Below, piece by piece: positions 5,761 through 28,632 of a DNA stretch of 32,000 bases; position 1 is the first letter of the stretch, and each line of letters opens with the position of its first letter. The DNA is from an uncultured bacterium (GTDB taxonomy: Bacteria > Patescibacteriota > Gracilibacteria > UBA1369 > PNNO01), in assembly GCA_963704705.1 (NCBI GenBank), contig OY969931.1:840001-872000 (forward strand). The letters are read 5' to 3'. A model generated the notes under the pieces. That model worked only from the letters and a program-made list of their open reading frames with translations, made no database searches and had not been told where the DNA came from. The translations under genes and the position numbers were made by a program.

Positions 5761-6057
5761 ATGTTTGAAAAAAAACATGCCAACAAGTTCTGGGCAATAG
5801 CAATTATTTTAATTGCGCTTGTAACAGTAACGGTTGTATTGCAGGCTCAAATCCTAATGATGCTTCGCGATCTGCAAACTTCGTTATTTAGAACTTTAAT
5901 CCCTACAACTTCGATAGAACAAGTTATGGATTCAAATCCATTACCAATCAAACCAGTGAATACTGTAAGTGATTCAAATCCATTACCAATCAAACCTGTT
6001 GATGTTGTAAGCGATTCAAATCCAAATCCACCAATGACAACATTGAAAACTTACTAG
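5761..6057 (+). CDS. Small (98 aa) signal-anchored protein with a proline-rich DSNPLPIKPV tandem repeat
   Basis: N-terminal hydrophobic helix FWAIAIILIALVTVTVVLQAQILMML. C-terminal repeats DSNPLPIKPVNTVS / DSNPLPIKPVDVVS / DSNPNPP. The ORF is bracketed by a consensus promoter and a strong terminator. Confidence 0.55.
   Translation: MFEKKHANKFWAIAIILIALVTVTVVLQAQILMMLRDLQTSLFRTLIPTTSIEQVMDSNPLPIKPVNTVSDSNPLPIKPVDVVSDSNPNPPMTTLKTY
5930..6033 (+). repeat. 42-bp coding tandem repeat, about 2.5 copies
   Basis: Unit 1 is 5930-5971 and unit 2 is 5972-6013; a partial unit 3 starts at 6014. Units 1 and 2 share an identical 26-nt run, gattcaaatccattaccaatcaaacc. Confidence 0.9.
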
Positions 6058-6112: not shown

Positions 6113-7183
6113 TTATTTTCCAAGTTCAGCTAATTTCTTTGCCTGATCTTCCATACTTAATTCTTCAATTATATCTTCAATATCGCCATCCATTATGCCG
6201 TGAATATTACTCCAGCTCTTTTTAATTCTATGATCAGTGACCCTATCCTGCGGAAAATTGTATGTCCTGATTTTTTCAGATCTGTCTCCTGTCCCAATTT
6301 GGCTTAAACGTTCCTCTCCGAGTTCCTTTAATCTCTTATCTTCTTCAATCTGATACAAACGAGCTCTTAAAACCGACATTGCTTTTGTCTTATTCTTTAA
6401 CTGTGATTTTTCATCCTGACAAGTTACTACCAGTCCAGAAGGTAAATGAGTAATTCTAACCGCAGAATCCGTAGTATTAACAGACTGCCCGCCTGGTCCG
6501 CTTGACCTGAATATATCAATTTTCAAATCGGAATCTTTAATATCAACTTCCACTTCATCAACTTCAGGCAATACTGCGCAGCTAACAGCTGAAGTGTGAA
6601 TTCTGCCCTGACTCTCTGTAACAGGAATTCTTTGAACCCTGTGGACACCGCTTTCATATTTCATTTTTCCATATGCCCCATGCCCCATAATTTTAAAAAT
6701 TATTTCTTTCATACCACCGTCTGTAGTTTCTGATTTACTTATAAGTTCTGTTTTAAATCCAATATTATCAGCCCATCTCATATACATTCGGGCAAGTTCA
6801 GCAGCAAAAAGCGAAGCTTCGTCTCCTCCTGTGCCAGCCCGTATTTCAACTATACAATCTTTAATATCATTTGGATCTTTAGGTAAAAGTTCTATTTTGA
6901 TCTGTTCTTCTAATGTTTTTTTATCTTTTTTTGCTTTTTCCAGCTGGTCTTTAGCCATTTCAATCATTTCTTCATCCTTTTCCGTTTCTAAAATCTCCTC
7001 GGAATCGCTTATTTCTTTCATTACATTTTCATATTTAACAGCCAATTTATAAGCATTTTCCAAAGCCTTTAAATTTTTCATTAATTTTGTATATTTTACC
7101 TGATCACTTGCAACCTCAGGTTGTGAAGCCTGCTTTTGAAGCTCTTCATACTCCGCTTTAATCTTTTGTAACTTATCCAGCAT
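6113..7183 (-). CDS. prfA: Peptide chain release factor 1
   Basis: GGQ motif in [24 protein letters not shown]. The RF1-type PxT tripeptide appears as PVT in [14 protein letters not shown]. Length is 356 aa. Confidence 0.95.
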
Positions 7184-10309: not shown

Positions 10310-13039
10310 TTATTGTTCGTAAAATTTACGAACAATATCATCTAGAAAAACAAGATCAAAAGTGCCGCTTACACTGCGGTCTCCGGTTGCAGTCTGAACA
10401 ATAACATTTGTAACCTTATCGTCTTTACTATAGTAATCAAAAGAAAACTTAGCACCCCGGTTTTCATCAAAATAAACATCAATTACTCTATAAATTCCAT
10501 TGTTGAAATCCACAATTGCAACATTATCTTCATTTAAAACCACTCCCAGATCCGAAAACTTTCCTACTACAAAAACCTTCGCTGTTTTAGCTACTTCATT
10601 TTCTTTTGTAGCTGGTTCTTCTTCGTCCGGAACAACAGTTGTACCGCTTTGAGAATCAACATATTCAAGAATAAAGCTTTTAACTTTATTCAATTTTATA
10701 CCTTCCTGAGTGACAATCTTGTCATCTATTATAATATTGGAAAGAAGTTCCCTATCCCAGTCATAAGTACCCCTGAATACAATTTTATTAACTTCAGCAC
10801 TTAATATAGGAACTTTAGTTTTTGTTGTGTCCTCATAAAATCCAAACTCAATATTCACAATTCCCTCATCATTTAGATCTTTTCTCACCCGTGCCAAAAC
10901 ATCGTTGGCAGTTAGTTCAACCTGAGCTGAAGTACCAAATATTTCTTTACGGATATCCTCAAAAGTTACATTTTGCTTTTGAATCTCTTTAAATGCTTCA
11001 AATCTTTCAAGGTGTGTGGCTCCATGAAGGGGAGTTGAAGAATATTCATCAGATTTCAAATACTCCCAAAACACTCCAAAATCCGCCAAACGCTTCTCAA
11101 ATAGATCATTTATTGCAGCAACGTCCAAAGTGTCTTGTTTAAGCTCTTCCATATCAGCAAGAAGCCTAAACACAATTTGTCTTGCATCAGCCGGATCAAG
11201 TTCTTCCTTAAATAAGAAATATTGAATTCGGCTTAAAAGATTTATTTTTTCATTAATAAATGTTTGTCTTTGTTCTTTTTTATCCCTAAGGCCCGGAATA
11301 GTAGCCAAATAATCTTCTTCTATTTTCTTTTTTGACTCAAATATGCCAATTTTGTACAAATCAGAGTTTAGGAATAATAAATTATCAATTAAAATATTTT
11401 GTCTTATTATTTGATCCCGGATTTCAGATATATTGTCACGATAGTTTTGGGTTAAAGACTCATAAAGTTCAAAATAATGCTCTAAAATAACTTCAGCATC
11501 ATTAGATCCGCTTGCCAGTGCATCATAAACATCATTTAACTTTAAAGTTAGTAGATTATATTGTTCTTCTATTGGAAGATCTTTTCTTGCCTTAGAATTA
11601 AAAATTTCTTCATAAAGAAGCTCTTTAATAGGATAAAGATCATTATCCGGAGTTAAATACAGATAATCTTCCAGATATTTAGCCAGTTCTTTATATAACA
11701 ATTCATTTGCATATTCATTCTGAGTAATAACAGGATCTTTTATATCATCTTTAAATAAAGACAAGCGAACACCCGCATCAGTTGAATTATTCTGAATAAA
11801 AAGAAAAGCAGCGTCATTAATGTTTTCAAAAATATCACCGACTAAACTTGAAGCTTTTTTCTGGTCTGTAAATGTAAGTGCTTCTCTTAAATCACTTAAC
11901 AATTGTTTTGCCTGAAATCTTACTGAGTCAGTTGATATATTTTTTAATCCCATTTCCCTAATGCTTTTTATAAATTTTTCATCTATTGACGTTTTTAAAC
12001 TATTATCCTTTCGTATATTTTCGGCTATCCACGGATCCTGCTCAATTGTAGTGGTCGCTGCGCGGCCATAGCTAAATTCCTTAACAAGCTTTGAATACAA
12101 AAGTTGCTCAATTGTTTCAGGCTCTTGATCAATTTTTGTATCCAAAAACTGAGCCTTATTTCCCTCGGCTATCCACAGCTTATTAATTACTTTATTGTTA
12201 GCCAATATTTCGACTGTAACATCATGCTTTTGAGCATAAATATTTGTTCGACTTCCATCGTATTCAATATTAAATAAAGAAAGTGATGGAATTGCTGCTA
12301 TTTTTCCTGAATTAATCCTAAGATCAAAAAAGTTATTCAATAAATTTCCCCATATTTTTCCGTTCATCAGAGTAAGTTCAAATTGTTCCTGGTCAACATT
12401 AAAACTGTTTATATTAATTATTGTATTGGCATCCAAACGAAGAACTCCCTTTAATGGAAGATTAATGGAAACGCCGCTTACAGACTGAGTATTCAATGTT
12501 TCGCCGCCTTTAAATTCATACTCGTTCTTTACATTAAATTTCTGTCCATTTTGTTCAATTTGAATGGTTTCATCACCAGGGATAGTTACTATAAATCTAT
12601 TATCATAAATAGCTACCTCTTCAGCTTTAACGTAATTATCAACATATAAAGTTAAAGCAAAAAGACCGAATCCAAGTACAAGTAGAAATAGAACTTTTAG
12701 TATTGAGAAAGCCAATGATTTAGGTTCCTTTACCTTAGTTTCGACTGGTTTTACTTCATCTTTAATAACTTTTTCCTGTTCTTTTTGAGCATTTTTTATC
12801 TTCTCTTGTGCATTTTTTTTATTCAATTCTTTTAGCTTTAAATCGAAGGTTTCAATAGGTTGCTTAGGAATAATTTTCTCTGCATTTTCTTGGGTAGTCA
12901 AAGGTTCCGGAGCTATTTCAGTTTGTTCATTAACAACTTGTGGCTCTGAACCTGTTTGAGGTTTAATTAAAAGTTCGTCATTTTGAATTAATGATTCTTC
13001 CGGACCTTTTTGATTTTTATTTGTGTTTTCTGGATTCAT
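10310..13039 (-). CDS. Large (909 aa) single-pass membrane-anchored protein of unknown function, with a possible FecR-like beta domain followed by a long helical region
   Basis: Uninterrupted ORF. A charged, low-complexity N-terminal ~105 aa is followed by one TM helix (LAFSILKVLFLLVLGFGLFALTLYV). Next is a beta-rich segment (LRLDANTIININSFNVDQEQFELTLMNGKIWGN) reminiscent of FecR-type sensors, then ~450 aa of helical sequence. I recognise no catalytic motifs. Confidence 0.55.
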   Translation of the reverse strand: MNPENTNKNQKGPEESLIQNDELLIKPQTGSEPQVVNEQTEIAPEPLTTQENAEKIIPKQPIETFDLKLKELNKKNAQEKIKNAQKEQEKVIKDEVKPVETKVKEPKSLAFSILKVLFLLVLGFGLFALTLYVDNYVKAEEVAIYDNRFIVTIPGDETIQIEQNGQKFNVKNEYEFKGGETLNTQSVSGVSINLPLKGVLRLDANTIININSFNVDQEQFELTLMNGKIWGNLLNNFFDLRINSGKIAAIPSLSLFNIEYDGSRTNIYAQKHDVTVEILANNKVINKLWIAEGNKAQFLDTKIDQEPETIEQLLYSKLVKEFSYGRAATTTIEQDPWIAENIRKDNSLKTSIDEKFIKSIREMGLKNISTDSVRFQAKQLLSDLREALTFTDQKKASSLVGDIFENINDAAFLFIQNNSTDAGVRLSLFKDDIKDPVITQNEYANELLYKELAKYLEDYLYLTPDNDLYPIKELLYEEIFNSKARKDLPIEEQYNLLTLKLNDVYDALASGSNDAEVILEHYFELYESLTQNYRDNISEIRDQIIRQNILIDNLLFLNSDLYKIGIFESKKKIEEDYLATIPGLRDKKEQRQTFINEKINLLSRIQYFLFKEELDPADARQIVFRLLADMEELKQDTLDVAAINDLFEKRLADFGVFWEYLKSDEYSSTPLHGATHLERFEAFKEIQKQNVTFEDIRKEIFGTSAQVELTANDVLARVRKDLNDEGIVNIEFGFYEDTTKTKVPILSAEVNKIVFRGTYDWDRELLSNIIIDDKIVTQEGIKLNKVKSFILEYVDSQSGTTVVPDEEEPATKENEVAKTAKVFVVGKFSDLGVVLNEDNVAIVDFNNGIYRVIDVYFDENRGAKFSFDYYSKDDKVTNVIVQTATGDRSVSGTFDLVFLDDIVRKFYEQ

Positions 13040-13146: not shown

Positions 13147-14844
13147 ATGAAATTAAAACTGAAGACTATTCTATTAGGTTTTGTATGTAGTTTATTTATT
13201 GCTCAAAACGCATTTGCCATACAATTTGTGGATGTAGTTGAAAGAAGCTTGTTTTACGATGCCATTAATTACTTTGTTACTGAAGTTCCGATTCTCGCAA
13301 CAGACAGGGATGAATTTAACCCGCTTGATAAAGTAACTAAAGCTGAATTCTTTAAATTATTGATTAGAAGCGGCGGATACGATCCTGCTCCGGATAATTA
13401 TGATATTCCTTATTATGATGTCACTGGTACAGAATGGTTTGCACCTTATGTGAAAACAGCGATTGATTTAAATATTATTCAATTCAGTGATAATAATCCA
13501 AATTTTAATGCAGGAGAAACTGTTACAAGAGAAGAAGCAATTGATTGGGTTGTTAAATTTTACGGGATTAATCCGGCTGCAGTGAGTTCTTTAGCGATCG
13601 AATACAATGATGTGTCTCCTTCTGATTCTTATGCAAATATTTCAAAAATTGCTTATCAACTTCATCTTTTACATGATTATAAATCAGGACTTTTTAATGC
13701 GAATAAAGAGTTAACAAGAGCCGAAGCTGTACATATATTTTATGAAGTTCATCAAAACGATCTTACTGCTTCAACTCAGCTACAAAACAGTAATTTAAAT
13801 GTTAATGATGCCAATTTTGCTCTTTTCTATGAAGTCTGGGATACAATCAATAATGAATATATAAACAAAGATGAAATTGATCAAAATGAGCTTATTTATG
13901 GTGCAATTACAGGATTGGTATATAAATTAAATGATCCATACAGTGTATTTTTCGAACCAATAGAAGCTGACAGTTATTTGGAAGCCTTAGAAGGCCAATT
14001 TGACGGCATTGGAATTTATCTTAATCAAGATGATTTGGATTTCGTTATACTGACGCCATTAAAAGGCTCTCCTGCTGAAGACGCCGGTATTAAACCCAAT
14101 GATATAATTATTGAAATTAATGATGAACCGGTTAGAGGACTTGAAATAGGAGATGTAATTGAACTTTTACGCGGTGAAATAGGAACTCAGGTTAAATTAA
14201 AACTAAAACGGGACAACAATTATATTTTAAAATATGTTACCAGAGCAAAAATTAATGTACCGTTTGTTGAAAGTGAAATGAAAGATGGTATTGGAATAAT
14301 CCATTATTATCAATTTACCAGTAACTCAGACGATCAATTGTCTGAAGCTCTTAGCGAAATTTTAAAAAATAATCCAAAAGGTATAATCCTTGATTTAAGA
14401 AATAACCCTGGAGGATTCATTTATAGCGCCCAGCAATTGATTTCAAGATTTATACCTGCAAATGAGCCTTATATTAACATCATATTGGCAGATGGTACTT
14501 CGTATACTGAAAAGTCGTTAGGTCCTGGTGAGCTTAAAGATTTACCGATCGTTGTGTTAGTTAACGAGGGTAGTGCATCTGCTTCTGAAATTGCTGCTTT
14601 GGCATTAAAAGATCAGTTAAACGCTAAGATTGTAGGAGTTAATTCATTTGGTAAAGCAAAAATCCAGGAAATTCTTACTTACCCTGATGGGTCGACATTA
14701 AAATTAAGTATTGCTAATTGGACTTCTCCAAATGGAACTTATATTCAGGATGTGGGAATAACGCCAGATTATATTGTAGAATTAAATCAGGCCAGTACAG
14801 TTGACGATCAGTTGGAAAAAGCATTACAACTAATTAAAAATTAG
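13147..14844 (+). CDS. S41 family C-terminal processing peptidase with N-terminal SLH-like repeats and a PDZ domain
   Basis: Signal peptide MKLKLKTILLGFVCSLFIAQNAFA. Three SLH-like modules: FVDV...FNPLDKVTKAEFFKLL, YYDV...GETVTREEAIDWV and YNDV...NKELTRAEAVHIF. PDZ domain GSPAEDAGIKPNDIIIEINDEPV. S41 core LDLRNNPGG and VLVNEGSASASEI. Confidence 0.85.
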   Translation: MKLKLKTILLGFVCSLFIAQNAFAIQFVDVVERSLFYDAINYFVTEVPILATDRDEFNPLDKVTKAEFFKLLIRSGGYDPAPDNYDIPYYDVTGTEWFAPYVKTAIDLNIIQFSDNNPNFNAGETVTREEAIDWVVKFYGINPAAVSSLAIEYNDVSPSDSYANISKIAYQLHLLHDYKSGLFNANKELTRAEAVHIFYEVHQNDLTASTQLQNSNLNVNDANFALFYEVWDTINNEYINKDEIDQNELIYGAITGLVYKLNDPYSVFFEPIEADSYLEALEGQFDGIGIYLNQDDLDFVILTPLKGSPAEDAGIKPNDIIIEINDEPVRGLEIGDVIELLRGEIGTQVKLKLKRDNNYILKYVTRAKINVPFVESEMKDGIGIIHYYQFTSNSDDQLSEALSEILKNNPKGIILDLRNNPGGFIYSAQQLISRFIPANEPYINIILADGTSYTEKSLGPGELKDLPIVVLVNEGSASASEIAALALKDQLNAKIVGVNSFGKAKIQEILTYPDGSTLKLSIANWTSPNGTYIQDVGITPDYIVELNQASTVDDQLEKALQLIKN

Positions 14845-17173
14845 GAGTTGTTGGAGGTTCGGATGCTGGTTCATTCTCTGTTTCAGGTTCTTCTTCCGGC
14901 TCTGGCTCAGCTTCCGGCTCCGGAGTAACTTCAGTTTCAACAGGTACCTCTTCTGCTGCAGGTCCAAGATCAGGCTCTGCCGGCGGTCCAGGTGCTTCAG
15001 TCCCTTCATATTCAACTTCTTCGGCCTGTGCCTGAAGTATTTCTTCCGGGTTTGTAGTTACAAGTTTATCTTCCCCATACGAAGCAATAATTTGAATTGC
15101 AACGTGTTTATTACCGGCAAAGAAAAGTCCCTGGCCGATTCCGCTGTTTAAAAGCATATATTTCTCGCCTTCCGTTAAATTAAATACACTTTGCAGCATA
15201 TCAATTGCTGCAGGTGCCTGTTTTAATAATACCTGCATCGATGAATTTGTAATAATAGGTTTGCCATATTTATTCTGAACAAAGTCTTCTACATCCTGAG
15301 TAATTGTAGTAACTCCCAAATAATATTTTCGGGCTCTTTTAACTAGTCCATATAAAAATCGTGCTGAATCATCATGCTGCATTAAAGACCAGGCCTCATC
15401 AATAACCAATATTCTGCGTTTAAGCGAACTTCTGACATTATTCCAAATGTAATTAAGAATAATATACATCGCGATTGGCCTTAATGCGTCCTCCAAATCA
15501 CGAATACTAAACACAACCAAACCAGAAGTTAAATCAATATTTGTTGATTTGTTAAATATTCCTGAATAAGTTCCTGATGTGAATTTTGCAAGTCTTGTAG
15601 CCAAATCTTTACCACCTTCCATTGAATTCAAAATATCATATAAATCTTCCATTGTAGGAGGAGCAATTGAAGAAGGATCTTCAATTTGCATAGTAATACC
15701 TCGTAATGCATAAACATCGGTTAATGCTTTATCAAGCATCCCTTCTTCTTCCGGGGTAACACCTCCAAGCATAATTTTTAATAAACCATGAAGAGCAATA
15801 ATATTTGAACGTAATAAATCCCCTGGTTTAACCACCTCATCTTTTAATGGAGCCGGCAAATCAAATGGATTGATTCTGCGATCGGAATTTAATGAAACTT
15901 TCATATAACTTCCGCCTACCACTTCGCTTATTGCTTCATATTCATTTTCCGGATCGATAACTATTACATCTGTTCCAAACATCAATGATCTTAAAATCTC
16001 GAGTTTTACAGCATAAGATTTACCTGCACCTGATTTTGCAAATACAACTGAATTCGCATTTTCCAGCTTGAATCTGTCAAAAATAATTAAACTATCGTTA
16101 TGTCTGTTGAGTCCGTAAAGGATTCCGGTATTTGAAGTAAGATCAGCTGAGGTAAACGGAAACATCGTTGATAATGGCGATGTATTCATATTCAATGTTA
16201 CCTCTAATTCATCTGTACAAATTGGAATTGTTGAATTAAATGCATGTTCAGCCTGGAGATCTGCACGTTTTATCATTACCAGTTTTCCTGCAAGCAAACT
16301 TGAAATCTGTTTGGCTACTCTTTGAAGCTTCTTTTTATCTTCCGCATAAATTGTAAAATAAAGTCCGAGCTGGAAAAACTTTTCCTGCCCCCTCTGAATT
16401 TGAGTTCTTAATTCTTCAGCATCCTGAAGCGCTGTTTCAATTGCAGGGTCTCTAACATTTCCTTTTTCTTCAGCGATTCTCATTGAAGATTGCAACTGCG
16501 CAACTTTTCTTTTTAAAACTTTCATTATCGCTGCTGAATCAATAGGATAAACAAATTGTGAAATATCCATTGTTACATCAAAATTTATAACCGGAGAAAG
16601 CCAGTTTGAATCGAGATATCGAGGATATGCGAAAACATAAAATGTCTGAGCATACATTCCTTCTACTCTAACACTATCAAAATCAACTTCCATCGAAGCC
16701 GGAGCAATTAAATCCCTAACTGTTGCAAGCCCTTCCTGATACAATTTTTCAGCTTCTTCAATTTTTTTCATTTCTTCCGGTAAAACCTTTGGTTTATTGC
16801 CGGTTAGCGCATCAGTCTCTGTCGTGGTTTTTGCAATTTCTGTTTGTTTTTGTTGTTGCACCGAAAATATATTCTTTAAATTATCAAAAATAGTCTTTTT
16901 ATGTTCAGCTTTCTCTTTCACCTCTGCTTTTTTTTCTTTTTCCTCAGGTTCAACAACAGGCTCAGCTGCAGGTTCAGTATTTTCTGCGGCAGCAGTTTCT
17001 CCTTTTGGCTTACCAGCACTCTTTACCCATGCAGGCAAATCTCCTGACGTATCTTTATTTTCTGTTGGCGGAACTGCTTTCTTCGCATCAGACTGCTGAT
17101 TTTCACCATTATTAAGCCATTCCGGAATCTCGGTAGTGCTTTCTGTTTGTGTTTGTTTTGTTTCGTCAGCCAT
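14834..17173 (-). CDS. VirB4/TrbE-family (AAA_10-like) ATPase with low-complexity N- and C-terminal extensions
   Basis: Walker A VFAKSGAGKSY and Walker B RILVIDEAWSLM, with GVTTITQDVEDF downstream. The N-terminal domain pattern YAQTFYVFAYPRYLDSNWLSPVI is typical of VirB4/TraC. The ~130-aa N-terminal region and the PE-rich C-terminal tail are low complexity. No other T4SS genes occur in the window. Confidence 0.7.
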   Translation of the reverse strand: MADETKQTQTESTTEIPEWLNNGENQQSDAKKAVPPTENKDTSGDLPAWVKSAGKPKGETAAAENTEPAAEPVVEPEEKEKKAEVKEKAEHKKTIFDNLKNIFSVQQQKQTEIAKTTTETDALTGNKPKVLPEEMKKIEEAEKLYQEGLATVRDLIAPASMEVDFDSVRVEGMYAQTFYVFAYPRYLDSNWLSPVINFDVTMDISQFVYPIDSAAIMKVLKRKVAQLQSSMRIAEEKGNVRDPAIETALQDAEELRTQIQRGQEKFFQLGLYFTIYAEDKKKLQRVAKQISSLLAGKLVMIKRADLQAEHAFNSTIPICTDELEVTLNMNTSPLSTMFPFTSADLTSNTGILYGLNRHNDSLIIFDRFKLENANSVVFAKSGAGKSYAVKLEILRSLMFGTDVIVIDPENEYEAISEVVGGSYMKVSLNSDRRINPFDLPAPLKDEVVKPGDLLRSNIIALHGLLKIMLGGVTPEEEGMLDKALTDVYALRGITMQIEDPSSIAPPTMEDLYDILNSMEGGKDLATRLAKFTSGTYSGIFNKSTNIDLTSGLVVFSIRDLEDALRPIAMYIILNYIWNNVRSSLKRRILVIDEAWSLMQHDDSARFLYGLVKRARKYYLGVTTITQDVEDFVQNKYGKPIITNSSMQVLLKQAPAAIDMLQSVFNLTEGEKYMLLNSGIGQGLFFAGNKHVAIQIIASYGEDKLVTTNPEEILQAQAEEVEYEGTEAPGPPAEPDLGPAAEEVPVETEVTPEPEAEPEPEEEPETENEPASEPPTTPNF

Positions 17174-17331: not shown

Positions 17332-20145
17332 ATGGCTAAGGATGAAAAAAATGAAAACCCTGAAGAAATAAATGAGCCAGAAGCAAGTTCTGATGAAATT
17401 GAAGAGGTAGAAAAAACAGAAAAAGTCCCGGAAGCAGAAGAAGAAGTAACCTTTGCACGAAATTTAAATAAACGGAATATTACAAAAGAAATGGAAGAAT
17501 CTTATCTTGATTATGCTATGAGCGTAATTGTATCAAGAGCACTTCCTGATGTTAGAGATGGTTTAAAACCAGTACACAGAAGAATTTTATATGCGATGCA
17601 TGAGCTTGGTTTAAGATCTACTGCAAATTTCAGAAAATCAGCCGGAGTTGTAGGTGAGGTAATGGGTAAATTCCATCCGCATGGTGATGCCGCGATTTAT
17701 GATTCCATGGTACGTTTGGCTCAGCATTTCTCACTAAGATACCCTCTTGTTAGGGGTCAGGGAAATTTTGGTTCAATTGATGGAGACTCTGCTGCGGCAA
17801 TGCGTTATACAGAAGCAAAACTTGAAAAAATTTCCGATGAAATTCTTGCAGATATCGATAAAGAAACCGTTGGATGGCACGATAACTATGATGGCAGATA
17901 TAAAGAACCTGATGTTCTTCCTTCAAAAATACCTCAGCTATTATTAAACGGAACTACAGGTATCGCTGTTGGTATGGCAACTTCTATTCCGCCGCATAAT
18001 TTAGGCGAACTTATTGATGGTGTTATTAATTTAATTGATAATCCTGAATTAACTATTGAAGATTTGATGGAGTTTGTTAAAGCTCCTGACTTCCCTACCG
18101 CAGGTAAAATTTACGATCTTGAAGCAATAAAACAAGCTTACACAACAGGTCGCGGAGGCATGACAATGCGTGCAAGAGCTGAAATTGAAGAGAGAAAAAG
18201 CGGTAAATATGCAATTATAATTACTGAAATCCCGTATCAGGTTAATAAAGCTAATCTGGTTGAGAAAATCGCTGATTTGGTCAGAGACAAAAAGATTGTC
18301 GGCATTGCTGATATACGTGATGAATCAAACAAGGACGGTATTAGAGTTGTTATTGAATTAAAACGTGAATCATTCCCTAAGAAAATTCTAAACCAATTGT
18401 ACAAGTTCACTCCGATGCAGCTTAATTTCAATATGAATATGATTGCTCTTGTTGATGGAATTCAGCCAAGAGTGCTTAATTTAAAACAGGTTCTTGAATT
18501 GTTCATAGAACACAGAAAAGAAGTTATTACAAAAAGAACTCAATACGAACTTCGAGTAGCTCAGGAAAGAGCACATATTTTGGAAGGTTTAAAAATTGCA
18601 TTAGATAATATTGATGCTGTTATTGACACGATCAGAAAATCAGCCGACAAAGAAAAAGCGCATGCAGCATTGATGAAACAGTTCAAACTTTCAGAAAAGC
18701 AAGCAACTGCGATTCTTGAAATGAGACTTCAAACACTTGCCGGACTTGAAAGACAGAAAATTGAAGATGAATATAAAGAAAAAATGGCAATTATAGCTGA
18801 ACTTGAATCAATTCTTAAAAATCCTCAAAGAATTTTGGATATAATTAAAGAAGAACTTGCAGAGATTAAAGAAAAATTTGGTGACAAGAGAAGAACTGAA
18901 ATTATACCTCACGGACTTGGTAAATTCTCTCTTAAAGATACAATTCCAAATGAACCGATGATTGTTATGCTATCTAGAGAAGGCTATATCAAACGTGTAC
19001 CGCCTTCAACATTTAAAGCTCAGCACAGAGGAGGTAAAGGAATAGTTGGAATTACAACAAAAGAAGAAGATGAAATAAATACTTTAATGCACGCAAAAAC
19101 TCATGATAATGCGTTGTTCTTTACTAATAAAGGCAGAGTTTTCCAACTTCCTGTATGGGAAATTCCAAAAACATCAAGACAAGCAAAAGGTTCACCGGTT
19201 GTTAATTTAATTCAGCTTGGTGAAAACGAAATTGTAACTGCCATGCTTGCAGCTAAAGAAAAATTCAAAGGTGAATTCTTAATAATGGCAACTAAAAAAG
19301 GAACAATTAAAAAAACCGCTGTTGAAGAATATAAAAATGTTCGTAAAAGCGGATTAATAGCAATAAAACTTAGAGACGGAGACTCATTGGAATGGGTTCG
19401 TGAAGTTTCAAAGGATAATGAAGTTATTCTTGTTACAAGAACCGGAAAAGCTATTAGATTTAATGAAAAAGACGCAAGAGATATGGGCCGGGCATCAATG
19501 GGGGTACGTGGAATCAAACTTAAAGATAAAGATTTTGTAGTTGAAATGGATGTTGTTAAAAGTCCTGCTGCAAGATTGTTTGTATTAATGGAAAACGGTC
19601 TTGGTAAAACTTCACAAGTTTCAAATTACAGACTTCAAAACAGAGGTGGCACCGGCGTAAAAGTGGCTAACATTACAACAAAAACAGGCCAGGTTGCAGG
19701 TGCTAAAGTATTGGAACAAACATTTGAAGGTGATGCGATTCTTATCTCTAAAAAAGGCGTTACAATAAGAATGAATCTTAAAGATATTCCTACGCTTGGA
19801 CGTGCGACTCAGGGTGTAACATTGATGAGATTAAAAGCCGGAGACAAAGTAAGCACACTTTCAATTATAAGAGTTGATGAAATTCAAAGAGAGGTTGAAG
19901 AAAGTGAAAAAGAAGCTGAAAAACAACGTAATAAAGAAGTAAGACAGGTCGATAAAGGTGTTGAAAAACTTGTTGAGAAAGTATTAGAATCAGAATCAAA
20001 ACCGGAACCTGAGGCTGTTGCTGTAGGCAGAGCGACCAAAGGGAGCTCTAAGGAGCGAGCGTCAGCGAGCGAAGCGAAAACTTCTAAACCTAAAGCAAAA
20101 ACAAGTAAGAAAAAAGTAGACCCTAAACAGCAATCTTTACTTTAA
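17332..20145 (+). CDS. gyrA: DNA gyrase subunit A, with acidic N-terminal and basic C-terminal extensions
   Basis: [24 protein letters not shown], the active-site tyrosine in [10 protein letters not shown], and C-terminal beta-pinwheel repeats. About 45 extra acidic residues at the N-terminus and about 90 extra residues at the C-terminus, ending [13 protein letters not shown]. Confidence 0.95.
20025..20080 (+). repeat. GC-rich 56-bp dispersed repeat, copy A (in frame within the gyrA 3' tail)
   Basis: aggcagagcgaccaaagggagctctaaggagcgagcgtcagcgagcgaagcgaaaa matches 21766-21821 at 53 of 56 positions, including a 33-nt perfect run. By my count it is 33/56 G+C in an AT-rich context, with the tetranucleotide AGCG recurring. 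It encodes [18 protein letters not shown]. Confidence 0.9.
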
Positions 20146-21424: not shown

Positions 21425-21871
21425 ATGAAAAAAGACGTACACCCAAAATATTATACAAATGCAAAATTCACTTGTGAATGCGGGAATGTTGTAGTTACAG
21501 GCTCAACTCTTGAATCATATAAAGTTGAAATATGCAGTGCTTGCCACCCTTTTTATACTGGTAAACAAAAGCTTGTTGATACAGCTGGTAGAGTAGAAAA
21601 ATTCATGGCTAAACGTAAAAAAGCTGAAGGTCCAAAAAAAGAAGATGAAATTTCAGAAACTGGTAAAAAAGCTAAAAAAGATGAAACTTATTTAACTGTT
21701 GATGAATTTAAAGCAATTAAAGAGAAAGAAAAGGATAAAGCAGTGAAAAGAGAAGTTAAAAAAACAGGCAGAGCGACTAAAGCGAGCCCTAAGGAGCGAG
21801 CGTCAGCGAGCGAAGCGAAAAAAAAACCAGCTGCTAAAAAGCCAACTGCTAAAAAAACCGCGAAAAAATAA
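21425..21871 (+). CDS. rpmE: 50S ribosomal protein bL31 (Zn-ribbon type) with a ~80-aa lysine/alanine-rich C-terminal extension
   Basis: [10 protein letters not shown]...CECG...[24 protein letters not shown] is a canonical L31 core of ~70 aa. The remainder is a charged tail ending [18 protein letters not shown]. Confidence 0.9.
21766..21821 (+). repeat. GC-rich 56-bp dispersed repeat, copy B (in frame within the rpmE 3' tail)
   Basis: aggcagagcgactaaagcgagccctaaggagcgagcgtcagcgagcgaagcgaaaa encodes [18 protein letters not shown]. Similarity to copy A stops abruptly on both sides of the 56 bp. Confidence 0.9.
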
Positions 21872-24555: not shown

Positions 24556-25379
24556 TGAAATTATTTAACAAAGCAATAAAAGATATAACCGTTGGATTCA
24601 TAGGCGGCAAAGGCCAGATGGCAAAGCTTTTTATTCCTTTATTTAAGAAAAAAGGCTTTAAAGTGATTATTTCTGATAAAGGAACAAAGCTTTCCAATAC
24701 GGAATTGGCCGAAATAGCTGATATTGTGATTGTTTCTGTGCCGATAATGAAAACCAAGGAGGTTATTCGAGAGATAATTCCTTTAACTCACGAAAAACAA
24801 TTGTTGATGGATTTCACTTCTTTGAAAGTCGAGCCGATTAATGAAATGTTAAAAGGCAAGGCTGAAGTAATTGGTCTTCATCCTATGTTTGGACCTAAAA
24901 TTTCGACTACCCAAAACCAAAGAATAGTGCTTTGTCCGGCCCGAACTGCGAACAAAAAATTTATCCAGAGTTTTCTTGAAGAACAAGGGCTTTTAGTGCA
25001 CGAAACAACACCGGAAAATCATGATAAAAACATGGGGGTAATTCAGGTTTTAATTCACTTTCATTCTATTTTGCTGGGTCATACTTTGCGCGACCTAAAT
25101 GTTGACTTAAATGAGCTGGAAAAATTTATGAGTCCTATTTATAAACTTGAATTTGGAGTAATTGCGCGTATGTTTTCTCAGGATCCGGACTTGTACGGAC
25201 CGATTTTAATGATGAATCCTGAAAAAAATTATATTATTGATTCCATTATGGTTAATACAAAAAATCTCGCGAATATTGTAGAATCCTCTAATCAAACGCT
25301 TTTTAGAGAATTCTTTATTAAGACATCAAAATACCTGGGTGAGTATAGTGAAATTGCATCGAAAATGATTAAAAGTTAA
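24555..25379 (+). CDS. tyrA: Prephenate dehydrogenase
   Basis: N-terminal Rossmann motif VGFIGGKGQMA and the TyrA-family hallmark GLHPMFGP. Length is 274 aa. Confidence 0.8.
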   Translation: MKLFNKAIKDITVGFIGGKGQMAKLFIPLFKKKGFKVIISDKGTKLSNTELAEIADIVIVSVPIMKTKEVIREIIPLTHEKQLLMDFTSLKVEPINEMLKGKAEVIGLHPMFGPKISTTQNQRIVLCPARTANKKFIQSFLEEQGLLVHETTPENHDKNMGVIQVLIHFHSILLGHTLRDLNVDLNELEKFMSPIYKLEFGVIARMFSQDPDLYGPILMMNPEKNYIIDSIMVNTKNLANIVESSNQTLFREFFIKTSKYLGEYSEIASKMIKS

Positions 25380-28300
25380 AAAAATCTGCGCATTTTATTT
25401 TTACTACTGATTCTGCATAAAGCTCACAAATTCTGGAACGATTATTCTTTCCACTAATTGCTTCAATTTCAACGAACCTTCTCCTTATCGCAGATATAGA
25501 TTTCCCAAGTTCTCTTGCCCATGCTTCAATTGTCCCGTATTTTTCTCCATTTAACTCAACAAATCCATTCTCATCAACATGTGGAAGGTCTACCAATAAA
25601 TCCACGCAAATATTTCTTATATCTGATTCACTATAAAAATCCCAAACTCCTCCATGTTTATTCTTCCCTTTAATTCCTTTAATCCCTAATAGTCTTTTCT
25701 TTATTGAATTAAATGAGATATCAAGTGCTTTTGCCCATCCTCCAATTGTTCCATGTCTTTCTCCGTCCACTTCAATGAATCCATTTTCATCAGCCTGTAA
25801 AAAATTTTCAATGAAATCAGAACATCTTTCCCTTACTATTGACCCCGCATAAAATTCACATATTCGGCCTCCTCCATCTTTACCTCTAATTCCTTCTAAT
25901 TCATTTAACCTTTTTTTAATTGCATTAGAGGAGATTGTTAATACCCTTGCCCAGGCCTCAATAGTCCCGTATTTTTCTCCATTTATCTCAATAAATCCAT
26001 TCTCATCAGCCTTTGGAAGGTCTGCCAATAAATCCGCGCAAATATTTCTTATATCTGATTCACTATAAAAATCACAAATTCCTCCTTTATTACTCTTACC
26101 TCTAATTTCTTTAATTCCAAATAGTCTTTTCTTTATTGAACGATATGAGATATTAAGTTCTCTTGCCCATCCTGCAATTGCGCCATACCTTTCTTCGTTC
26201 AATTCAAAAAAACCACTCTCATCAGCCTTAGGGAGATCTAACATTAAATCCGCACAACTTTTTTTTACTCTTGATTCCGGGTAAAATTTATGAATTCTCC
26301 CATTTTTATTTTTCCCATTAATTCCTTCTAAACCATTTAACCTTTCAAATATTACATGTCTTGAGACACCAAATTCTTTTGACCATAAATATAATGAACC
26401 ATACCTTTCTCCATCCAGTTCGAAAAATCCATTCTCATCAGATACAGGAACGTCTTCAAGTAAATCAAAGCATTTTTCTTTTATGCTTGATTTCGGGTAA
26501 AATTCATTTATTGCGCCTTTTATATTCTTACCTCTAATTCCTTCCACTCCATTTAATTTAACCTTAATTGTAGGTGAGGAGATACCAATTGTTTTTGCCC
26601 AAGCTCGAATTGTTCCATATTGTTGACCATTTAAATAGAAAAATCCATTCTCATCTGCTTGCAAAAAATCTTCCAGTAAATCAGAACATCTTTCCCTTAT
26701 TAATGACTCTGAGTAAAATTGGCAAATTGTACCTTTTTTATACCTCCCTCTAATTCCTTTAATCCCTAATAATCTTTTCTTTATTGAATTATGTGCGACG
26801 CCAAGTTCTTTTGCCCATCCTTCAATTGTTTGATGTCTTTCACCGCCCACTTCAAAAAATCCATTATCATCGGCCTGTGGAAGATTTTCAAGGAAATCAG
26901 AACATCTTTCCCTTACTGTTGACTCCGTATAGAATTCACATATTCGGCTTAACTTATCTTTACCTGCAACCCCTTCTATACCAACTAATTTTTTCTTAAT
27001 CGTAAAATGGTTAACACCAAATTCCCTTACCCATGTATTTATTGTCCCATATCTCTCCCCATCCAATTCAAACAATCCATGCTCATCTGCCTGCGGAAGC
27101 TCTTCTCGTAATTTAAGCTGCTCATAAATATCAACTTGTTCGACTTCGCGCACGTATATCTGAGGATTTTTTCCCAATAAGTGTTGCCTAATCATTGCAA
27201 CTTCATCTTGTACCGGACTTCCCACATCGCCACCGTGGAATCCCCCGTGTGAGTTTTGCAGACCAAGAATGCGTCCTTCTTTAAAATCCGGCCAGCAATC
27301 TAGTAAATCAGGCAATAAATATGGTCTGTACCTGTTTGATCTAGGAATTATTTGTGCAACAAGTGCAAACATCTTTTTAAATCCCTGTTGTGATAAATCA
27401 CTTTGCGCTCGTATCTGACGAAGAACTCTTCCGTGTCGTTGTTCAAGTTTTGTAGAAGATAATGTCGGATAAGCATCTATAAGACACCTTGCCCTTGGGA
27501 GATTTATACCTCTGCCACCCATCTCGCAAAGTACCAATATATCTACTTTCCCATCATTAAAATCCGTCATATCTCTTTTAATCTGTTCCGAACTCATGCT
27601 TTCACCTGTCCAACAACGAACTGTAACTCCTTTATCACCGAGTTTCTGTAAAAGTTCCAGTGTTGTGGCATAAGCCAGTTGGACACTTGGAACATATACT
27701 AAAGTCGGGAAATTTTTTCTATTTTCTTTTGGAACAAGGGCTTCATAAACTTCAGGAATAGCCTTTTGAATTTCTGCTTCTTTTAATGCTGTTTGCAGTT
27801 CTTTTTGGTCGTAATCATCCTTTATTACATTTAATTGGCTGTCATCCAAGTCCGCTTCGAACAAATAAAATAACGGCGGGACATTTATTCCTTTTAAAAT
27901 TCCTTCTTTTAAATTCATTTCGTGTATTTTTTCTCCCCAAATTTCAGAAATATCTCTGCCGTCAGGCCATTTTGATGTAGCGGTAAGGCCCACTTTTACG
28001 GGATATTGAAAACCATTTATAATTTCTTTTCTTTCATCCGTTAAAAACATATCCGCTTCATCTCCTATTAAAAGCCGCACCCTTTCCGAAGGTAATAATT
28101 TGGCTAAATCTTTCTTATTTTTTTGCATTGCCTGAATGCTCGAAACAATTAAAGGACGGTCAAGAACTTTCTTTCCACCGCCCCAAATGCCGGTATCAAG
28201 ACCCAAAAAGTCAAATTCCTCTCTAATCATATGAAGTAATGATCTTTCAGTTGTTAATATAACATCGTGAGAATCCTGAAGTCCTAATTCCTGTTTTGCT

Positions 28301-28632
28301 CTTTGAGATGCAATTGCGAGATTAGCTTCAAGTATAGTTTTACCAGAACCGCATGAATGAACTATTGAAAATGCTTTTCTGTTAACAGCAAGTGCTATAG
28401 CCGCAAGTTGCATTGCCTCCTGTTGATGCGGATCCATGATAAGATCCGGATTCTCATTTAAAGGAGTTAATGTATCTATTTGGCGTTCGCAATAATCCGC
28501 GAATTTTAGTTGATAATCGTCTTGCATTAAGATTATTTTACAGAGATTTATTTTAACCTTTTTCATACTTTTGTCAAGCAATAAGCCCCTGAAAATTTGT
28601 TCATTTACAGGGAGAGTATACCTATTGCGCAC
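25369..28632 (-). CDS. Superfamily-2 DEAD-motif helicase (ResIII/COG1061-like core) fused to eight C-terminal tandem 72-aa HTH-like repeats
   Basis: Helicase motifs: I HSCGSGKT, II LIGDEADMF, III GLTATS, VI QRHGRVLR. Residues ~512-1087 are eight in-register 72-aa repeats. The start is ambiguous: GTG at 28632 (longest ORF), ATG at 28566, or ATG at 28527. A minus-strand TTGACA-16nt-TAAAAT (28577-28551) would favour 28527. Confidence 0.8.
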   Translation of the reverse strand: MRNRYTLPVNEQIFRGLLLDKSMKKVKINLCKIILMQDDYQLKFADYCERQIDTLTPLNENPDLIMDPHQQEAMQLAAIALAVNRKAFSIVHSCGSGKTILEANLAIASQRAKQELGLQDSHDVILTTERSLLHMIREEFDFLGLDTGIWGGGKKVLDRPLIVSSIQAMQKNKKDLAKLLPSERVRLLIGDEADMFLTDERKEIINGFQYPVKVGLTATSKWPDGRDISEIWGEKIHEMNLKEGILKGINVPPLFYLFEADLDDSQLNVIKDDYDQKELQTALKEAEIQKAIPEVYEALVPKENRKNFPTLVYVPSVQLAYATTLELLQKLGDKGVTVRCWTGESMSSEQIKRDMTDFNDGKVDILVLCEMGGRGINLPRARCLIDAYPTLSSTKLEQRHGRVLRQIRAQSDLSQQGFKKMFALVAQIIPRSNRYRPYLLPDLLDCWPDFKEGRILGLQNSHGGFHGGDVGSPVQDEVAMIRQHLLGKNPQIYVREVEQVDIYEQLKLREELPQADEHGLFELDGERYGTINTWVREFGVNHFTIKKKLVGIEGVAGKDKLSRICEFYTESTVRERCSDFLENLPQADDNGFFEVGGERHQTIEGWAKELGVAHNSIKKRLLGIKGIRGRYKKGTICQFYSESLIRERCSDLLEDFLQADENGFFYLNGQQYGTIRAWAKTIGISSPTIKVKLNGVEGIRGKNIKGAINEFYPKSSIKEKCFDLLEDVPVSDENGFFELDGERYGSLYLWSKEFGVSRHVIFERLNGLEGINGKNKNGRIHKFYPESRVKKSCADLMLDLPKADESGFFELNEERYGAIAGWARELNISYRSIKKRLFGIKEIRGKSNKGGICDFYSESDIRNICADLLADLPKADENGFIEINGEKYGTIEAWARVLTISSNAIKKRLNELEGIRGKDGGGRICEFYAGSIVRERCSDFIENFLQADENGFIEVDGERHGTIGGWAKALDISFNSIKKRLLGIKGIKGKNKHGGVWDFYSESDIRNICVDLLVDLPHVDENGFVELNGEKYGTIEAWARELGKSISAIRRRFVEIEAISGKNNRSRICELYAESVVKIKCADFFNF
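25372..27099 (-). repeat. Coding tandem repeat array, 8 x 216 bp (72 aa), ending exactly at the stop codon
   Basis: Approximate unit consensus: LPxADENGFFELxGERYGTIxxWAKELGISxxSIKKRLxGIEGIRGKNKxGRICxFYxESxIRExCxDLLxD. D5, G8, W23, I34, G46, Y57, S60, C66 and D68 are invariant in all eight units. 8 x 216 = 1728 nt, which spans exactly 27099 down to 25372. Confidence 0.9.

Follow-up and report, generated by a model that had tools for sequence, protein, structure and literature searches.

A probable DNA-targeting motor system, not previously described, in which an SF2 ATPase is fused to eight predicted winged-helix-like repeats in a Gracilibacteria genome

The window analysed here is a 32,000-nucleotide stretch of a genome from an uncultured member of the Gracilibacteria (contig OY969931.1). 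On its reverse strand, one gene encodes in a single frame an intact SF2 ATPase and an array of eight 72-residue units (Table 1). The flanking genes, tyrA (prephenate dehydrogenase) and ruvA (RuvA), both lie on the opposite strand, as the initial annotation had it. The frame given there, 25369 to 28632 on the minus strand, does exist and codes for 1087 amino acids from a GTG, but the true start is probably the ATG at 28527 (M36 of that frame). This is because an identical protein in public data (P0001, on a 1.37-Mb contig) is 1052 amino acids long, homologues, like P0001, have 472-480 residues ahead of the array, and the region's best match to a sigma-70-like consensus (11/12 positions) lies inside the GTG extension. 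Starting at the GTG would add 35 residues that overlap this promoter candidate.

Table 1. Coordinates of the gene and its features in the window
Feature	Position	Strand	Remarks
Whole gene, likeliest expressed form, 1052 aa	25369..28527	minus	stop codon 25369-25371 included; start from P0001 and homologue N-termini
Sigma-70-like promoter candidate	28550..28577	minus	TTGACA, 16 nt, TAAAAT; 22 nt upstream of ATG 28527; consensus match only
RecA-like domain 1	27973..28437	minus	Pfam ResIII 1.7e-15, DEAD 6.7e-7
Domain 1 motifs	28339-28341; 28051-28062; 27976-27984	minus	Walker A (GSGKT) Lys codon; DEAD; TAT
RecA-like domain 2	27418..27741	minus	Pfam Helicase_C 3.7e-15
Motif VI, QRHGRVLR	27418-27441	minus	in domain 2
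Motor-array connector	27100..27417	minus	low-confidence loop, helix, strand, helix, into unit 1
Repeat unit 1, 72 aa	26884..27099	minus	first ~14 residues (LPQADEHGLFELDG) match the C-terminal tail of free-standing helicases
Repeat unit 2	26668..26883	minus	
Repeat unit 3	26452..26667	minus	
Repeat unit 4	26236..26451	minus	
Repeat unit 5	26020..26235	minus	61-63% identical to units 2 and 7
Repeat unit 6	25804..26019	minus	59% identical to unit 8; TRF 432-nt period
Repeat unit 7	25588..25803	minus	
Repeat unit 8	25372..25587	minus	stop codon adjoins; without a basic tail, unlike most free-standing arrays

The motor has the complete SF2 core that had been read from its motifs. Across 25 homologues, the Walker A lysine (K63 in P0001 numbering), the DEAD and TAT motifs (D156-D159, T182-T184) and Q363, R364, R367 and R370 of motif VI are invariant. 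Upstream of motif I, the homologue alignment contains a conserved HQxxA element (H34, Q35), reminiscent of the R-x-Y-Q-x-x-A element in enzymes of the ResIII/XPB type. The Foldseek neighbours of the core are RadD, the HsdR subunit of EcoR124I, SauUSI and XPB/Ssl2 (~1e-12), and PHROG 16, a DNA helicase family, is matched at 4.9e-40. The core resembles these dsDNA translocases (XPB/Ssl2, type I HsdR, RadD, SauUSI), unlike DEAD-box RNA helicases. An RNA helicase with an RNA-binding array, such as a ribonucleoprotein remodeller, would fit a motif II that reads DEAD and the Pfam DEAD match (6.7e-7), and HTH-like folds can bind RNA. This reading is highly improbable: ResIII and SWI2_SNF2 are stronger than DEAD in Pfam, as are the PHROG DNA helicase and DNA translocase structure matches, all NCBIfam models of DEAD-box RNA helicases gave E >0.1 and the HQxxA element is like that of the ResIII/XPB type.

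Between motor and array lies a connector, for which the full-length AlphaFold model gives pLDDT <50 at residues 421-435, then helix 440-452, strand 457-466 and helix 467-475. This region is conserved among homologues, and is found also in P0027, a sister helicase that carries Pfam HA repeats (5.9e-37). Helicases with HA domains had initially been regarded as merely analogous, which does not hold, as P0027 belongs to the same clade and shares 41% identity across 95% of the motor. In both proteins the motor is followed by tandem repeats of ~65-77 residues that run to the C-terminus. The repeats themselves differ, and the earlier statement that the unit is not Pfam HA stands: the window repeat has no PF03457 match, with an hhalign probability of 0.1. 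HA is an all-helical domain, whereas the 72-residue unit is predicted as two beta-hairpins and an HTH, and a split operon with many array genes was found here only for the 72-residue unit.

The array occupies residues 512-1087 of the GTG-started frame, and its eight head-to-tail units follow one another without linkers up to the stop codon, as first described. The units had been called exact repeats; this is true of the 72-residue period but not of the sequence, in which pairwise identity is 38-65% (mean 50%). The nine invariant positions that had been listed (D5, G8, W23, I34, G46, Y57, S60, C66 and D68) were reproduced exactly. At the DNA level, TRF reports a period of 432 nt, or two units, with 75-80% matches, the signature of a two-unit duplication (units 5-6 and 7-8).

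The HTH-like character initially proposed for the unit is borne out by AlphaFold, which predicts a beta-hairpin, an HTH, a beta-hairpin wing and then two short helices (pLDDT 92.9 for a di-unit, 85.9 for the full-length protein). Consistent with this, nearly all sub-threshold Pfam matches of the unit are HTH DNA-binding families. No match in Pfam, NCBIfam or PDB reached threshold, profile searches of PDB sequences gave nothing below E 0.1, and Foldseek with the unit returned no significant fold (best E 0.14 in PDB and 0.011 among viral models). Its weak, compact matches were winged HTH proteins that bind DNA: BldC, RacA, CarH, IBP39, PrtN, Bro-N, NUMOD1 proteins and I-TevI-like proteins. The relative P0173 has a PADLOC match at 1.7e-14 to mad1, a small protein resembling a regulator. 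The 72-residue unit, previously uncatalogued, is thus predicted to be a winged-helix-like domain.

Two known module types come close to this prediction. In NUMOD1/IENR1 modules (I-TevI-, I-HmuI-type), too, a short beta-element precedes an HTH that bears a '...LGIS..TI..' signature, and these modules are likewise used in tandem beside a DNA-acting enzyme. The likeness to NUMOD1 and homing endonucleases noted initially is upheld in part: PHROG 3377, an HNH endonuclease family, covers the hairpin and HTH part of the unit at 4.9e-16, and NUMOD1 and I-TevI-like proteins are among the weak viral fold matches, but Pfam NUMOD1 stays below threshold (16.3 against 22.8 bits). In addition, the 72-residue unit is longer, adding a wing and C-terminal helices with a near-invariant Cys, the largest arrays reach 13 units per protein, and the helicase-array protein has no nuclease domain. 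BldC and lambda Xis (MerR/excisionase-type) share the topology of HTH, beta-hairpin wing and helix, and the compact weak fold matches include BldC, RacA, CarH, PrtN and MerR-type phage proteins. Proteins of this type assemble head to tail along direct repeats, an arrangement that a covalent tandem array would mimic. Unlike them, the units here are covalently joined, have an extra N-terminal hairpin and are attached to an ATPase. Comparison with BldC/Xis gave no significant sequence or fold match (Foldseek E >1), and hhalign gave a probability of 4% for lambda Xis.

Among 79 independent arrays the scaffold is strongly constrained, and variation clusters at column 21, the wing tip and recognition-helix positions 1, 2, 5, 6 and 9. 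The variation first seen at columns 21-22, 31-33 and 48-52 of the window array holds in this larger set, and extends to 35, 36, 39 and 54. Within arrays, mismatch is 0.83-0.93 at columns 21, 31, 32, 35, 36, 39, 42, 49, 50 and 54, against 0.14-0.37 at scaffold columns. In the model, the variable columns sit on HTH helix 2 and the wing loop; whether they share one face, and how the array would fit B-DNA, is judged from secondary structure only. The pN/pS ratio is 0.35 for the whole unit, and columns 21, 26, 31, 32 and 36 change at about the synonymous rate; these column ratios of ~1 have confidence intervals that include 1 and demonstrate no non-synonymous excess.

The tandem units, which lack linkers and combine a fixed scaffold with variation at particular sites, had suggested the logic of a TALE- or PUF-style reader. 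One or two code residues in such a reader would let a unit recognise a single base or a very short word, making targets predictable and re-engineerable. The units of P0002, P0040 and P0084, which are ~74% identical and differ mostly at the variable columns, fit such a code. This logic finds no support in the window protein, and a reader of this kind is very unlikely, because at least ten columns vary rather than one or two, units are only ~50% identical and the unit is predicted to fold as a 72-residue winged-HTH-like domain, not as an alpha-solenoid repeat. A domain of this type usually touches several base pairs. TALE and PUF proteins, and the more recent DNA-binding repeat proteins STAR, MOON and pTERF (Hu et al. 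2024, PMC11417379), likewise pair a conserved scaffold with localised hypervariable residues in tandem repeats; they differ in fold and unit length from the 72-residue unit with its many variable columns, and the 72-residue-unit family is absent from the main text of that survey.

The unit is present in 612 representative proteins, the majority of which are stand-alone arrays; 26 fusions have unit numbers that vary from 3 to 9. On long contigs six stand-alone arrays were located, and every one of them directly follows the gene of an orthologous helicase of ~500 amino acids; split loci hold 1-8 array genes with up to 44 units per locus. The description of the gene as solitary is correct for this window, but misleading, because most relatives have an operon of helicase and array. 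In free helicases the first beta-strand of the unit survives as a conserved tail: 48 of 48 C-termini end in a D/E-x-G-F-hydrophobic strand motif (34 by strict regular expression, the remainder by eye), and some tails hold the whole hairpin. Free arrays start at the second strand, with model positions 9-15 as their first in 85 of 135.

The array genes turn over between strains, in sequence as well as in number, with six in 8.8 kb and three in 4.05 kb in a pair whose flanks are 89-94% identical, and the units of the closest homologues have no positional orthology. In its layout of one motor gene followed by several fast-changing candidate specificity genes, the split form recalls type I restriction, and the motor resembles HsdR (3h1t at 4.3e-5; EcoR124I HsdR by Foldseek). 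Unlike type I systems, it lacks a nuclease domain, a methyltransferase and an HsdS-like target-recognition domain, the NCBIfam EcoAI R model gives 23.7 bits where the cut-off is 550, and exchange of arrays on the motor is hypothesised here rather than observed.

Such turnover, with unconstrained columns on a constrained scaffold, is what an anti-phage or anti-plasmid role might produce. Here the arrays would sense foreign DNA or proteins and the helicase would be the effector, blocking replication or transcription of the invader or recruiting host nucleases. AIPR and SIR2-like genes lie upstream at one locus (L010), and PADLOC gives weak motor matches to the defence helicases PbeA (7.8e-9) and a type IV restriction enzyme (1.6e-8). 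These PADLOC matches, however, reflect generic similarity of the helicase core, and the protein contains no effector domain such as a nuclease, methylase or toxin, nor does one lie consistently beside it. Neighbourhoods are not conserved among loci and adjacent genes give no clear functional clue; housekeeping genes surround this and most other loci, and GC content is like that of the surroundings (0.36 for the gene, 0.353 around it). The helicase looks lineage-wide rather than patchy, with one orthologue cluster on 28 contigs that include Candidatus Peribacter riflensis genomes, and the column ratios above show no demonstrated non-synonymous excess. We regard conflict as a tentative possibility; it concerns biological role and is compatible with a DNA-binding mechanism.

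The HTH-like fold may alternatively bind protein partners or oligomerise, so that the array would be a scaffold recruiting the helicase to a complex. The window array is not basic (pI 6.6, net charge ~-2), profile and Foldseek searches revealed no significant similarity to proven DNA-binding domains, evolving protein interfaces would also explain variable exposed positions, and the tail docking proposed below would already engage the unit in a protein-protein contact. Against this, basic residues are conserved in the unit (R16, K/R25, R37, K47 and R63), free arrays are basic (median pI 9.15), the variable columns show the 1, 2, 5, 6, 9 pattern that is classic for an HTH recognition helix, together with the wing tip, and the motor is of DNA-translocase type. 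The HA repeats of the sister clade are also reported to bind DNA, to judge from the title of Mills et al. 2013 (reference 64 in PMC12191111). A protein-interaction module is unlikely.

Our preferred reading, to which we give a probability of about 0.55, is that the window protein represents, in fused form, a two-part system in which a motor of dsDNA-translocase type is targeted by modular DNA-binding arrays. We infer that every unit touches DNA as winged-HTH domains usually do, with the array laid along an extended DNA stretch. Unit-specific preferences would come from the hypervariable residues of the second HTH helix (1, 2, 5, 6 and 9) and the wing tip. Because each unit would contact DNA with its own preference, the array would anchor or target the motor, which would translocate on that DNA, or remodel it, in an ATP-driven manner. 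In the split form, alternative arrays would dock on a single motor through the unit's first strand or hairpin; we propose this because the motor keeps that element as its tail and the arrays begin at the second strand. The fusion in this window would make the docking permanent. On the best reading of its distribution, the system is confined to the Peregrinibacteria, Peribacteria and Gracilibacteria of the candidate phyla radiation. For these bacteria it probably represents an undescribed DNA-targeting motor system, which, as a guess, may serve in DNA surveillance, conflict or repair.

The gene lies on the minus strand within one long open reading frame (Table). The initial annotation had read it from a GTG at 28632; the true start is probably the ATG at 28527, because the identical public protein is 1052 residues long, homologues have an N-terminus of equal length, and the best promoter-like site falls within the 35-codon extension. 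Eight linker-free units of 72 residues had been described, and these make up the C-terminal 576 residues, the last abutting the stop codon; an alignment of the eight reproduced exactly the nine positions reported as invariant. The units had also been called exact repeats. This holds for their period but not for their sequence, as they are 38-65% identical to one another (mean 50%). At the DNA level, periodicity is seen only at 432 nt, or two units, with 75-80% identity, because a pair of units was duplicated.

The N-terminal half is an intact SF2 ATPase. The proposed helicase core was recovered by Pfam as ResIII (57.8 bits, cut-off 22.5; E = 1.7e-15) and Helicase_C (56.6 bits, cut-off 23.5; E = 3.7e-15), and its two RecA-like domains with Walker A, DExx, motif III and motif VI place it in the SF2 ResIII-Helicase_C group. 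The Walker-A Lys, DEAD, TAT and the motif VI Q and R residues are invariant in 25 homologues, which makes it very likely that the motor is an active ATPase. Using Foldseek, the closest structures to the core were RadD, EcoR124I HsdR, SauUSI, archaeal XPB and yeast Ssl2, all near 1e-12, and the top PDB sequence match of the motor was a type I R subunit fragment (4.3e-5). These neighbours are DNA enzymes, mostly double-strand translocases; DEAD-box RNA helicase models in NCBIfam score poorly on the motor.

Assignment to a more specific class was evaluated and rejected in each case. The NCBIfam model for the XPB/Rad25 repair helicase (NF045503) scored 30.3 bits against a cut-off of 610; the likeness is at the fold level only. 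The type I restriction R subunit model (NF046051) scored 23.7 bits against 550, no nuclease domain was found by Pfam, and the adjacent genes in the window encode prephenate dehydrogenase and RuvA, where hsdM and hsdS would be required. More broadly, no nuclease, methylase or other catalytic domain was detected in the protein with Pfam, NCBIfam or PHROG. Membership of a known defence system was also dismissed, as PADLOC-DB 2.0 matches were limited to the helicase core (PbeA, 7.8e-9; type IV REase, 1.6e-8), at the level of generic helicase similarity, and to mad1, which significantly matched the relative P0173 (1.7e-14). Mad1 is an accessory, regulator-like protein; its authors class its gene alongside restriction-modification components and widespread regulators, and MADS defence does not require it.

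A motor-only search recovered the free helicase of ~500 residues more commonly than the fused form, and included an orthologue from Candidatus Peribacter riflensis genomes. One partial helicase homologue, P0226 (376 aa, 58% identical), carries the source label Candidatus Hodarchaeales, an archaeon; since its contig is so small (1170 bp), this label is probably a binning or labelling artefact.

Within the same clade, the helicase P0027 shares the connector and matches 95% of the motor at 41% identity, but bears Pfam helicase-associated (HA, PF03457) repeats in place of the 72-residue unit (four matches, 5.9e-37). The cores of HA-domain helicases and of the window motor are thus homologous, whereas the window repeats gave no PF03457 match at E up to 1. 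Consistent with the earlier view that the unit is not the Pfam HA domain, hhalign comparison of the unit profile with the P0027 HA repeat returned a probability of 0.1, and by this profile comparison the two repeats appear unrelated. The HA domain has been reported as DNA-binding (Mills et al. 2013, as cited in PMC12191111). The kinship of motor and connector with an HA-bearing protein indicates that the window architecture is a variant, with a different repeat, of a known but functionally uncharacterised theme. A helicase with C-terminal DNA-binding repeats is therefore not in itself new; the domain family and its operon organisation are.

No Pfam or NCBIfam model matched the repeat at threshold. 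Its sub-threshold matches were nearly all to HTH DNA-binding families (DUF2089-HTH, DUF739, HTH_41, HTH_10, HTH_50, sigma-70 region 4, NUMOD1 and Cro), and a significant match was obtained between the hairpin-plus-HTH part and PHROG 3377, annotated as an HNH endonuclease (4.9e-16). AlphaFold2 gave a pLDDT of 85.9 for the full-length protein (25 sequences) and 92.9 for two units, with each unit predicted to run from a beta-hairpin through two helices, a second beta-hairpin (the wing) and a helix to a short helix. Together with the sub-threshold Pfam matches, this model supports the HTH-like reading of the unit first made from the sequence alone. In Foldseek searches of the PDB and of viral models, no match of the unit was significant; the compact weak matches were to DNA-binding winged-HTH proteins (BldC, RacA, CarH, IBP39, PrtN, Bro-N, NUMOD1 proteins and I-TevI-like proteins). 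Sequence profiles built from 8 and from 70 units retrieved no PDB sequence below E 0.1, and no MerR/excisionase-type member appeared in the PDB profile search.

We evaluated two named families further. A likeness to homing-endonuclease modules had been proposed, and the PHROG 3377 match agrees with it; membership of NUMOD1 (PF07453) does not follow, as the score was 16.3 bits against a gathering score of 22.8 (E = 0.012), with three of 23 di-units matching at E below 0.1. The homing-endonuclease catalytic domain (GIY-YIG, HNH or LAGLIDADG) expected beside NUMOD1/IENR1 modules was not found in the window protein with Pfam, NCBIfam or PHROG. The pattern 'G.x.GK...G....FY.E..V' in the unit is suggestive of excisionases. 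The window protein gave no HTH_17 match in Pfam, and lambda Xis reached an hhalign probability of 4%, although this was a weak test; four relatives have PF12728 among their precomputed Pfam domains, for which scores are not given. From the sub-threshold and negative family searches and the AlphaFold2 model, we conclude that the unit represents a family not yet catalogued, with a confidently predicted winged-HTH-like fold, and not demonstrable as a member of NUMOD1, HTH_17 or HA. Full-text searches of the literature found no description of the 72-residue unit family.

The unit varies along its length in a structured manner. Alignment of 746 units to the unit model allowed differences within arrays to be scored in the 79 proteins with at least five units. 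The most variable columns were 21, 31, 32, 35, 36, 39, 42, 49, 50 and 54 (mismatch 0.83-0.93), with P2, G8, F9, G46, G51, F56, Y57, E59 and C66 near-fixed, which confirmed the earlier placing of the variation and extended it to more columns. In the AlphaFold2 model, columns 31-37 form the second HTH helix and columns 48-52 the loop of the second hairpin; the hypervariable columns lie on canonical DNA-reading elements, comprising the wing tip and, on the presumptive recognition helix, positions 1, 2, 5, 6 and 9. It is through this surface that winged HTH domains usually contact DNA. The suggested TALE- or PUF-like logic would call for near-identical units that differ at just one or two residues; with units this divergent and at least ten columns exceeding a mismatch of 0.8, a one-residue code of that type is not supported.

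Codon-level comparison gave a pN/pS of ~0.35 for the whole unit and ~1 at columns 21, 26, 31, 32 and 36. In a smaller set of 20 pairs, column pN over global pS slightly exceeded 1 at six columns, whereas in a larger set of 90 pairs, drawn largely from a single locus, the ratios were 0.93-1.02 and their intervals included 1, at a pS of 0.65, near saturation. Given near-saturated synonymous sites and non-independent pairs, we limit our claim to a constrained scaffold with relaxed or unconstrained columns, rather than proven diversifying selection. A diversity-generating retroelement was rejected as the source because the variation lies between paralogous units and no reverse transcriptase was seen among neighbours with precomputed Pfam hits.

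When 1.84 billion cluster representatives were searched with the unit profile, 612 proteins matched, 229 of these at values below 1e-30. The majority lack a helicase: they consist only of units, 3 to 13 in number, start with Met and have a short, usually basic C-terminal tail. Unit number varies among homologues, with fusions carrying 3 to 9. Related loci were located by scanning species-representative genomes with a 25-protein alignment, a single-protein scan having given no relative. All 18 matching loci come from metagenome-assembled or single-cell genomes, labelled Peregrinibacteria, Peribacteria, Gracilibacteria or Patescibacteria, or in one case merely 'uncultured bacterium'. At many of these loci a helicase of ~490-500 residues forms its own ORF and is followed by one or several array ORFs. 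Of the stand-alone arrays on long contigs, six were located, and each lies directly downstream of such a helicase. Motor and array are thus fused in some genomes and linked as adjacent genes in an operon in others, which is strong evidence that they work together.

Features of the window and of related loci (L numbers)
Sequence	Position	Strand	Feature	Details
Window	25369..28632	minus	Helicase-array ORF	1087 codons when read from GTG
Window	2282-5608	minus	1108-residue ORF	Sole Pfam match an HD domain near residues 786-886 (4e-7); first about 780 residues without Pfam match
Window	5929-6024		42-bp tandem repeat	2.3 copies, 88% matches; intergenic, between the 1108-residue ORF and a prfA-like gene (6113..7183, minus)
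Window	10310-13039	minus	909-residue ORF	No Pfam match at E up to 1e-4; flanked by a gyrB-like gene and an S41 peptidase bearing an SLH domain
Window	14834-17173	minus	VirB4/TraC-type ATPase	TraG P-loop, 3.9e-26
Window	20025-20080, 21766-21821		56-nt direct repeat	Copies 95% identical; GC about 57% vs 35% for the genome; one copy each, in frame, at the 3' end of gyrA (17332..20145) and of the unrelated L31-like gene (21425..21871)
L013	6893-7900	minus	Array gene upstream of helicase	Opposite strand to helicase; five further array genes downstream, same strand as helicase
L022	4332-4567		Helicase/first-array gap	236-bp spacer; AT-rich part, then GC-rich, partly palindromic stretch (…GGCCATGAGCTCCCGCTCGGGCCTGAGGGCCTCGGGGCCTCGAACGGCGAGGCC…)
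L022			Six array genes	About 35 units
L026			Eight array genes	44 units
L027			Four array genes	25 units

Several further observations concern the surroundings of these genes. Both copies of the 56-nt direct repeat in the window encode GRATK(G/A)S(S/P)... inside Lys-rich tails, and the window contains two exact copies of its 31-nt core, where chance predicts 0. The repeat could have arisen by gene conversion or by insertion of a small element, or it could be a tail with a function common to both proteins. T4SS pilin, TrbL or TraG/VirD4-type genes lie a few kb from the helicase-array clusters of L022, L024 and L027, which may be coincidence in small genomes. The inverted repeat copies at L013 could permit inversion-type shuffling. 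Comparison with 50,697 phage records by tblastn produced no match to the array that would point to a phage origin. No conserved gene neighbourhood was found among the loci examined. Genes of DNA metabolism do recur as neighbours, namely ruvA (window, L017), uvrB (L022, L024), recQ (L010) and dnaE (L020), but this is a weak clue because the genomes are small and the loci few and non-independent.

Where motor and array are split, the free helicases terminate in '...LP.AD..GF(I/F)Y(L)...', which corresponds to the first beta-strand of the unit, and sometimes retain the whole first hairpin; by eye this tail motif is present in 48 of 48 examined, of which a strict pattern caught 34. Free arrays start at model positions 9-15, in the '(E)RY.T' second strand, in 85 of 135 cases and end at positions 70-72, their first unit being a recognisable conserved variant. 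Conservation of the tail on helicases that are only 38-56% identical suggests that it is functional. A gap between the helicase and first array gene was noted in L019 as well as L022; at other loci the two genes overlap or nearly abut.

The arrays themselves turn over at strain level. Between L022 and L024, the left flank plus helicase is 94.5% identical and the uvrB flank 89.5% identical, whereas the array cluster of L022 spans 8.8 kb with six genes and that of L024 4.05 kb with three, the best colinear piece having 83.5% identity. Units of the window protein lack positional correspondence with those of its closest homologues, and some arrays are internally homogenised, as in the relative P0002, whose units have a mean identity of 74%. 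Together these data indicate that arrays change by duplication, loss and recombination of units and genes, and do so faster than the motor.

These data allow us to propose a mechanism in which the arrays would bind double-stranded DNA along an extended site and so supply the motor's address, with alternative arrays docking on the motor through its C-terminal tail. Two points count against DNA binding: the window array is near neutral (pI 6.6), although free arrays are nonetheless basic (median pI 9.15), and the unit has no significant match to a proven DNA binder. In its complete form, the model holds that the units are a new modular DNA-reading class and that a swappable library of arrays docks on one translocase via the tail. 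The recognition helix and wing of a unit would together read a few base pairs, the array would specify a long composite site, a cell's cassette library would reach up to eight genes and 44 units, and docking would proceed by beta-strand or hairpin complementation with the conserved tail. We consider this complete model unlikely, at a probability of roughly 15%. The proposed exchange of specificity subunits would follow a logic analogous to type I HsdS shuffling, built from different parts.

What such a system would be used for can be read in more than one way. The variability and turnover of the arrays suggest a function in conflict or surveillance, and one locus, L010, adjoins AIPR and SIR2-like genes. 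The window gene, however, sits among housekeeping genes with local GC content, lacks an effector and belongs to a family that seems widespread in the lineage, and the recurrent neighbours are repair and replication genes, albeit in a small sample. Array turnover beside a conserved motor suggests either a conflict or surveillance system that has gone unrecognised or a means of targeting chromosomes flexibly.

The biology of candidate-phyla bacteria is still mostly inferred from sequence, and the 72-residue family offers a large and coherent set of proteins with confident models, open to direct test. Should the arrays turn out not to bind DNA, what remains is a lineage-specific repeat protein. 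If they do, the 612 representatives would constitute an uncatalogued family of tandem DNA-recognition modules, none of them named in Pfam, NCBIfam or the PDB, and the variable residues at HTH base-reading sites would make them a natural candidate for engineerable long-site DNA binders. The family is coupled to a motor, and its occurrence in both fused and split forms already identifies motor and arrays as partners; were the complete model true, it would represent a potential new engineerable DNA-targeting scaffold. The family also offers a first functional handle on the related HA-domain helicases, which have long been known yet remain uncharacterised.
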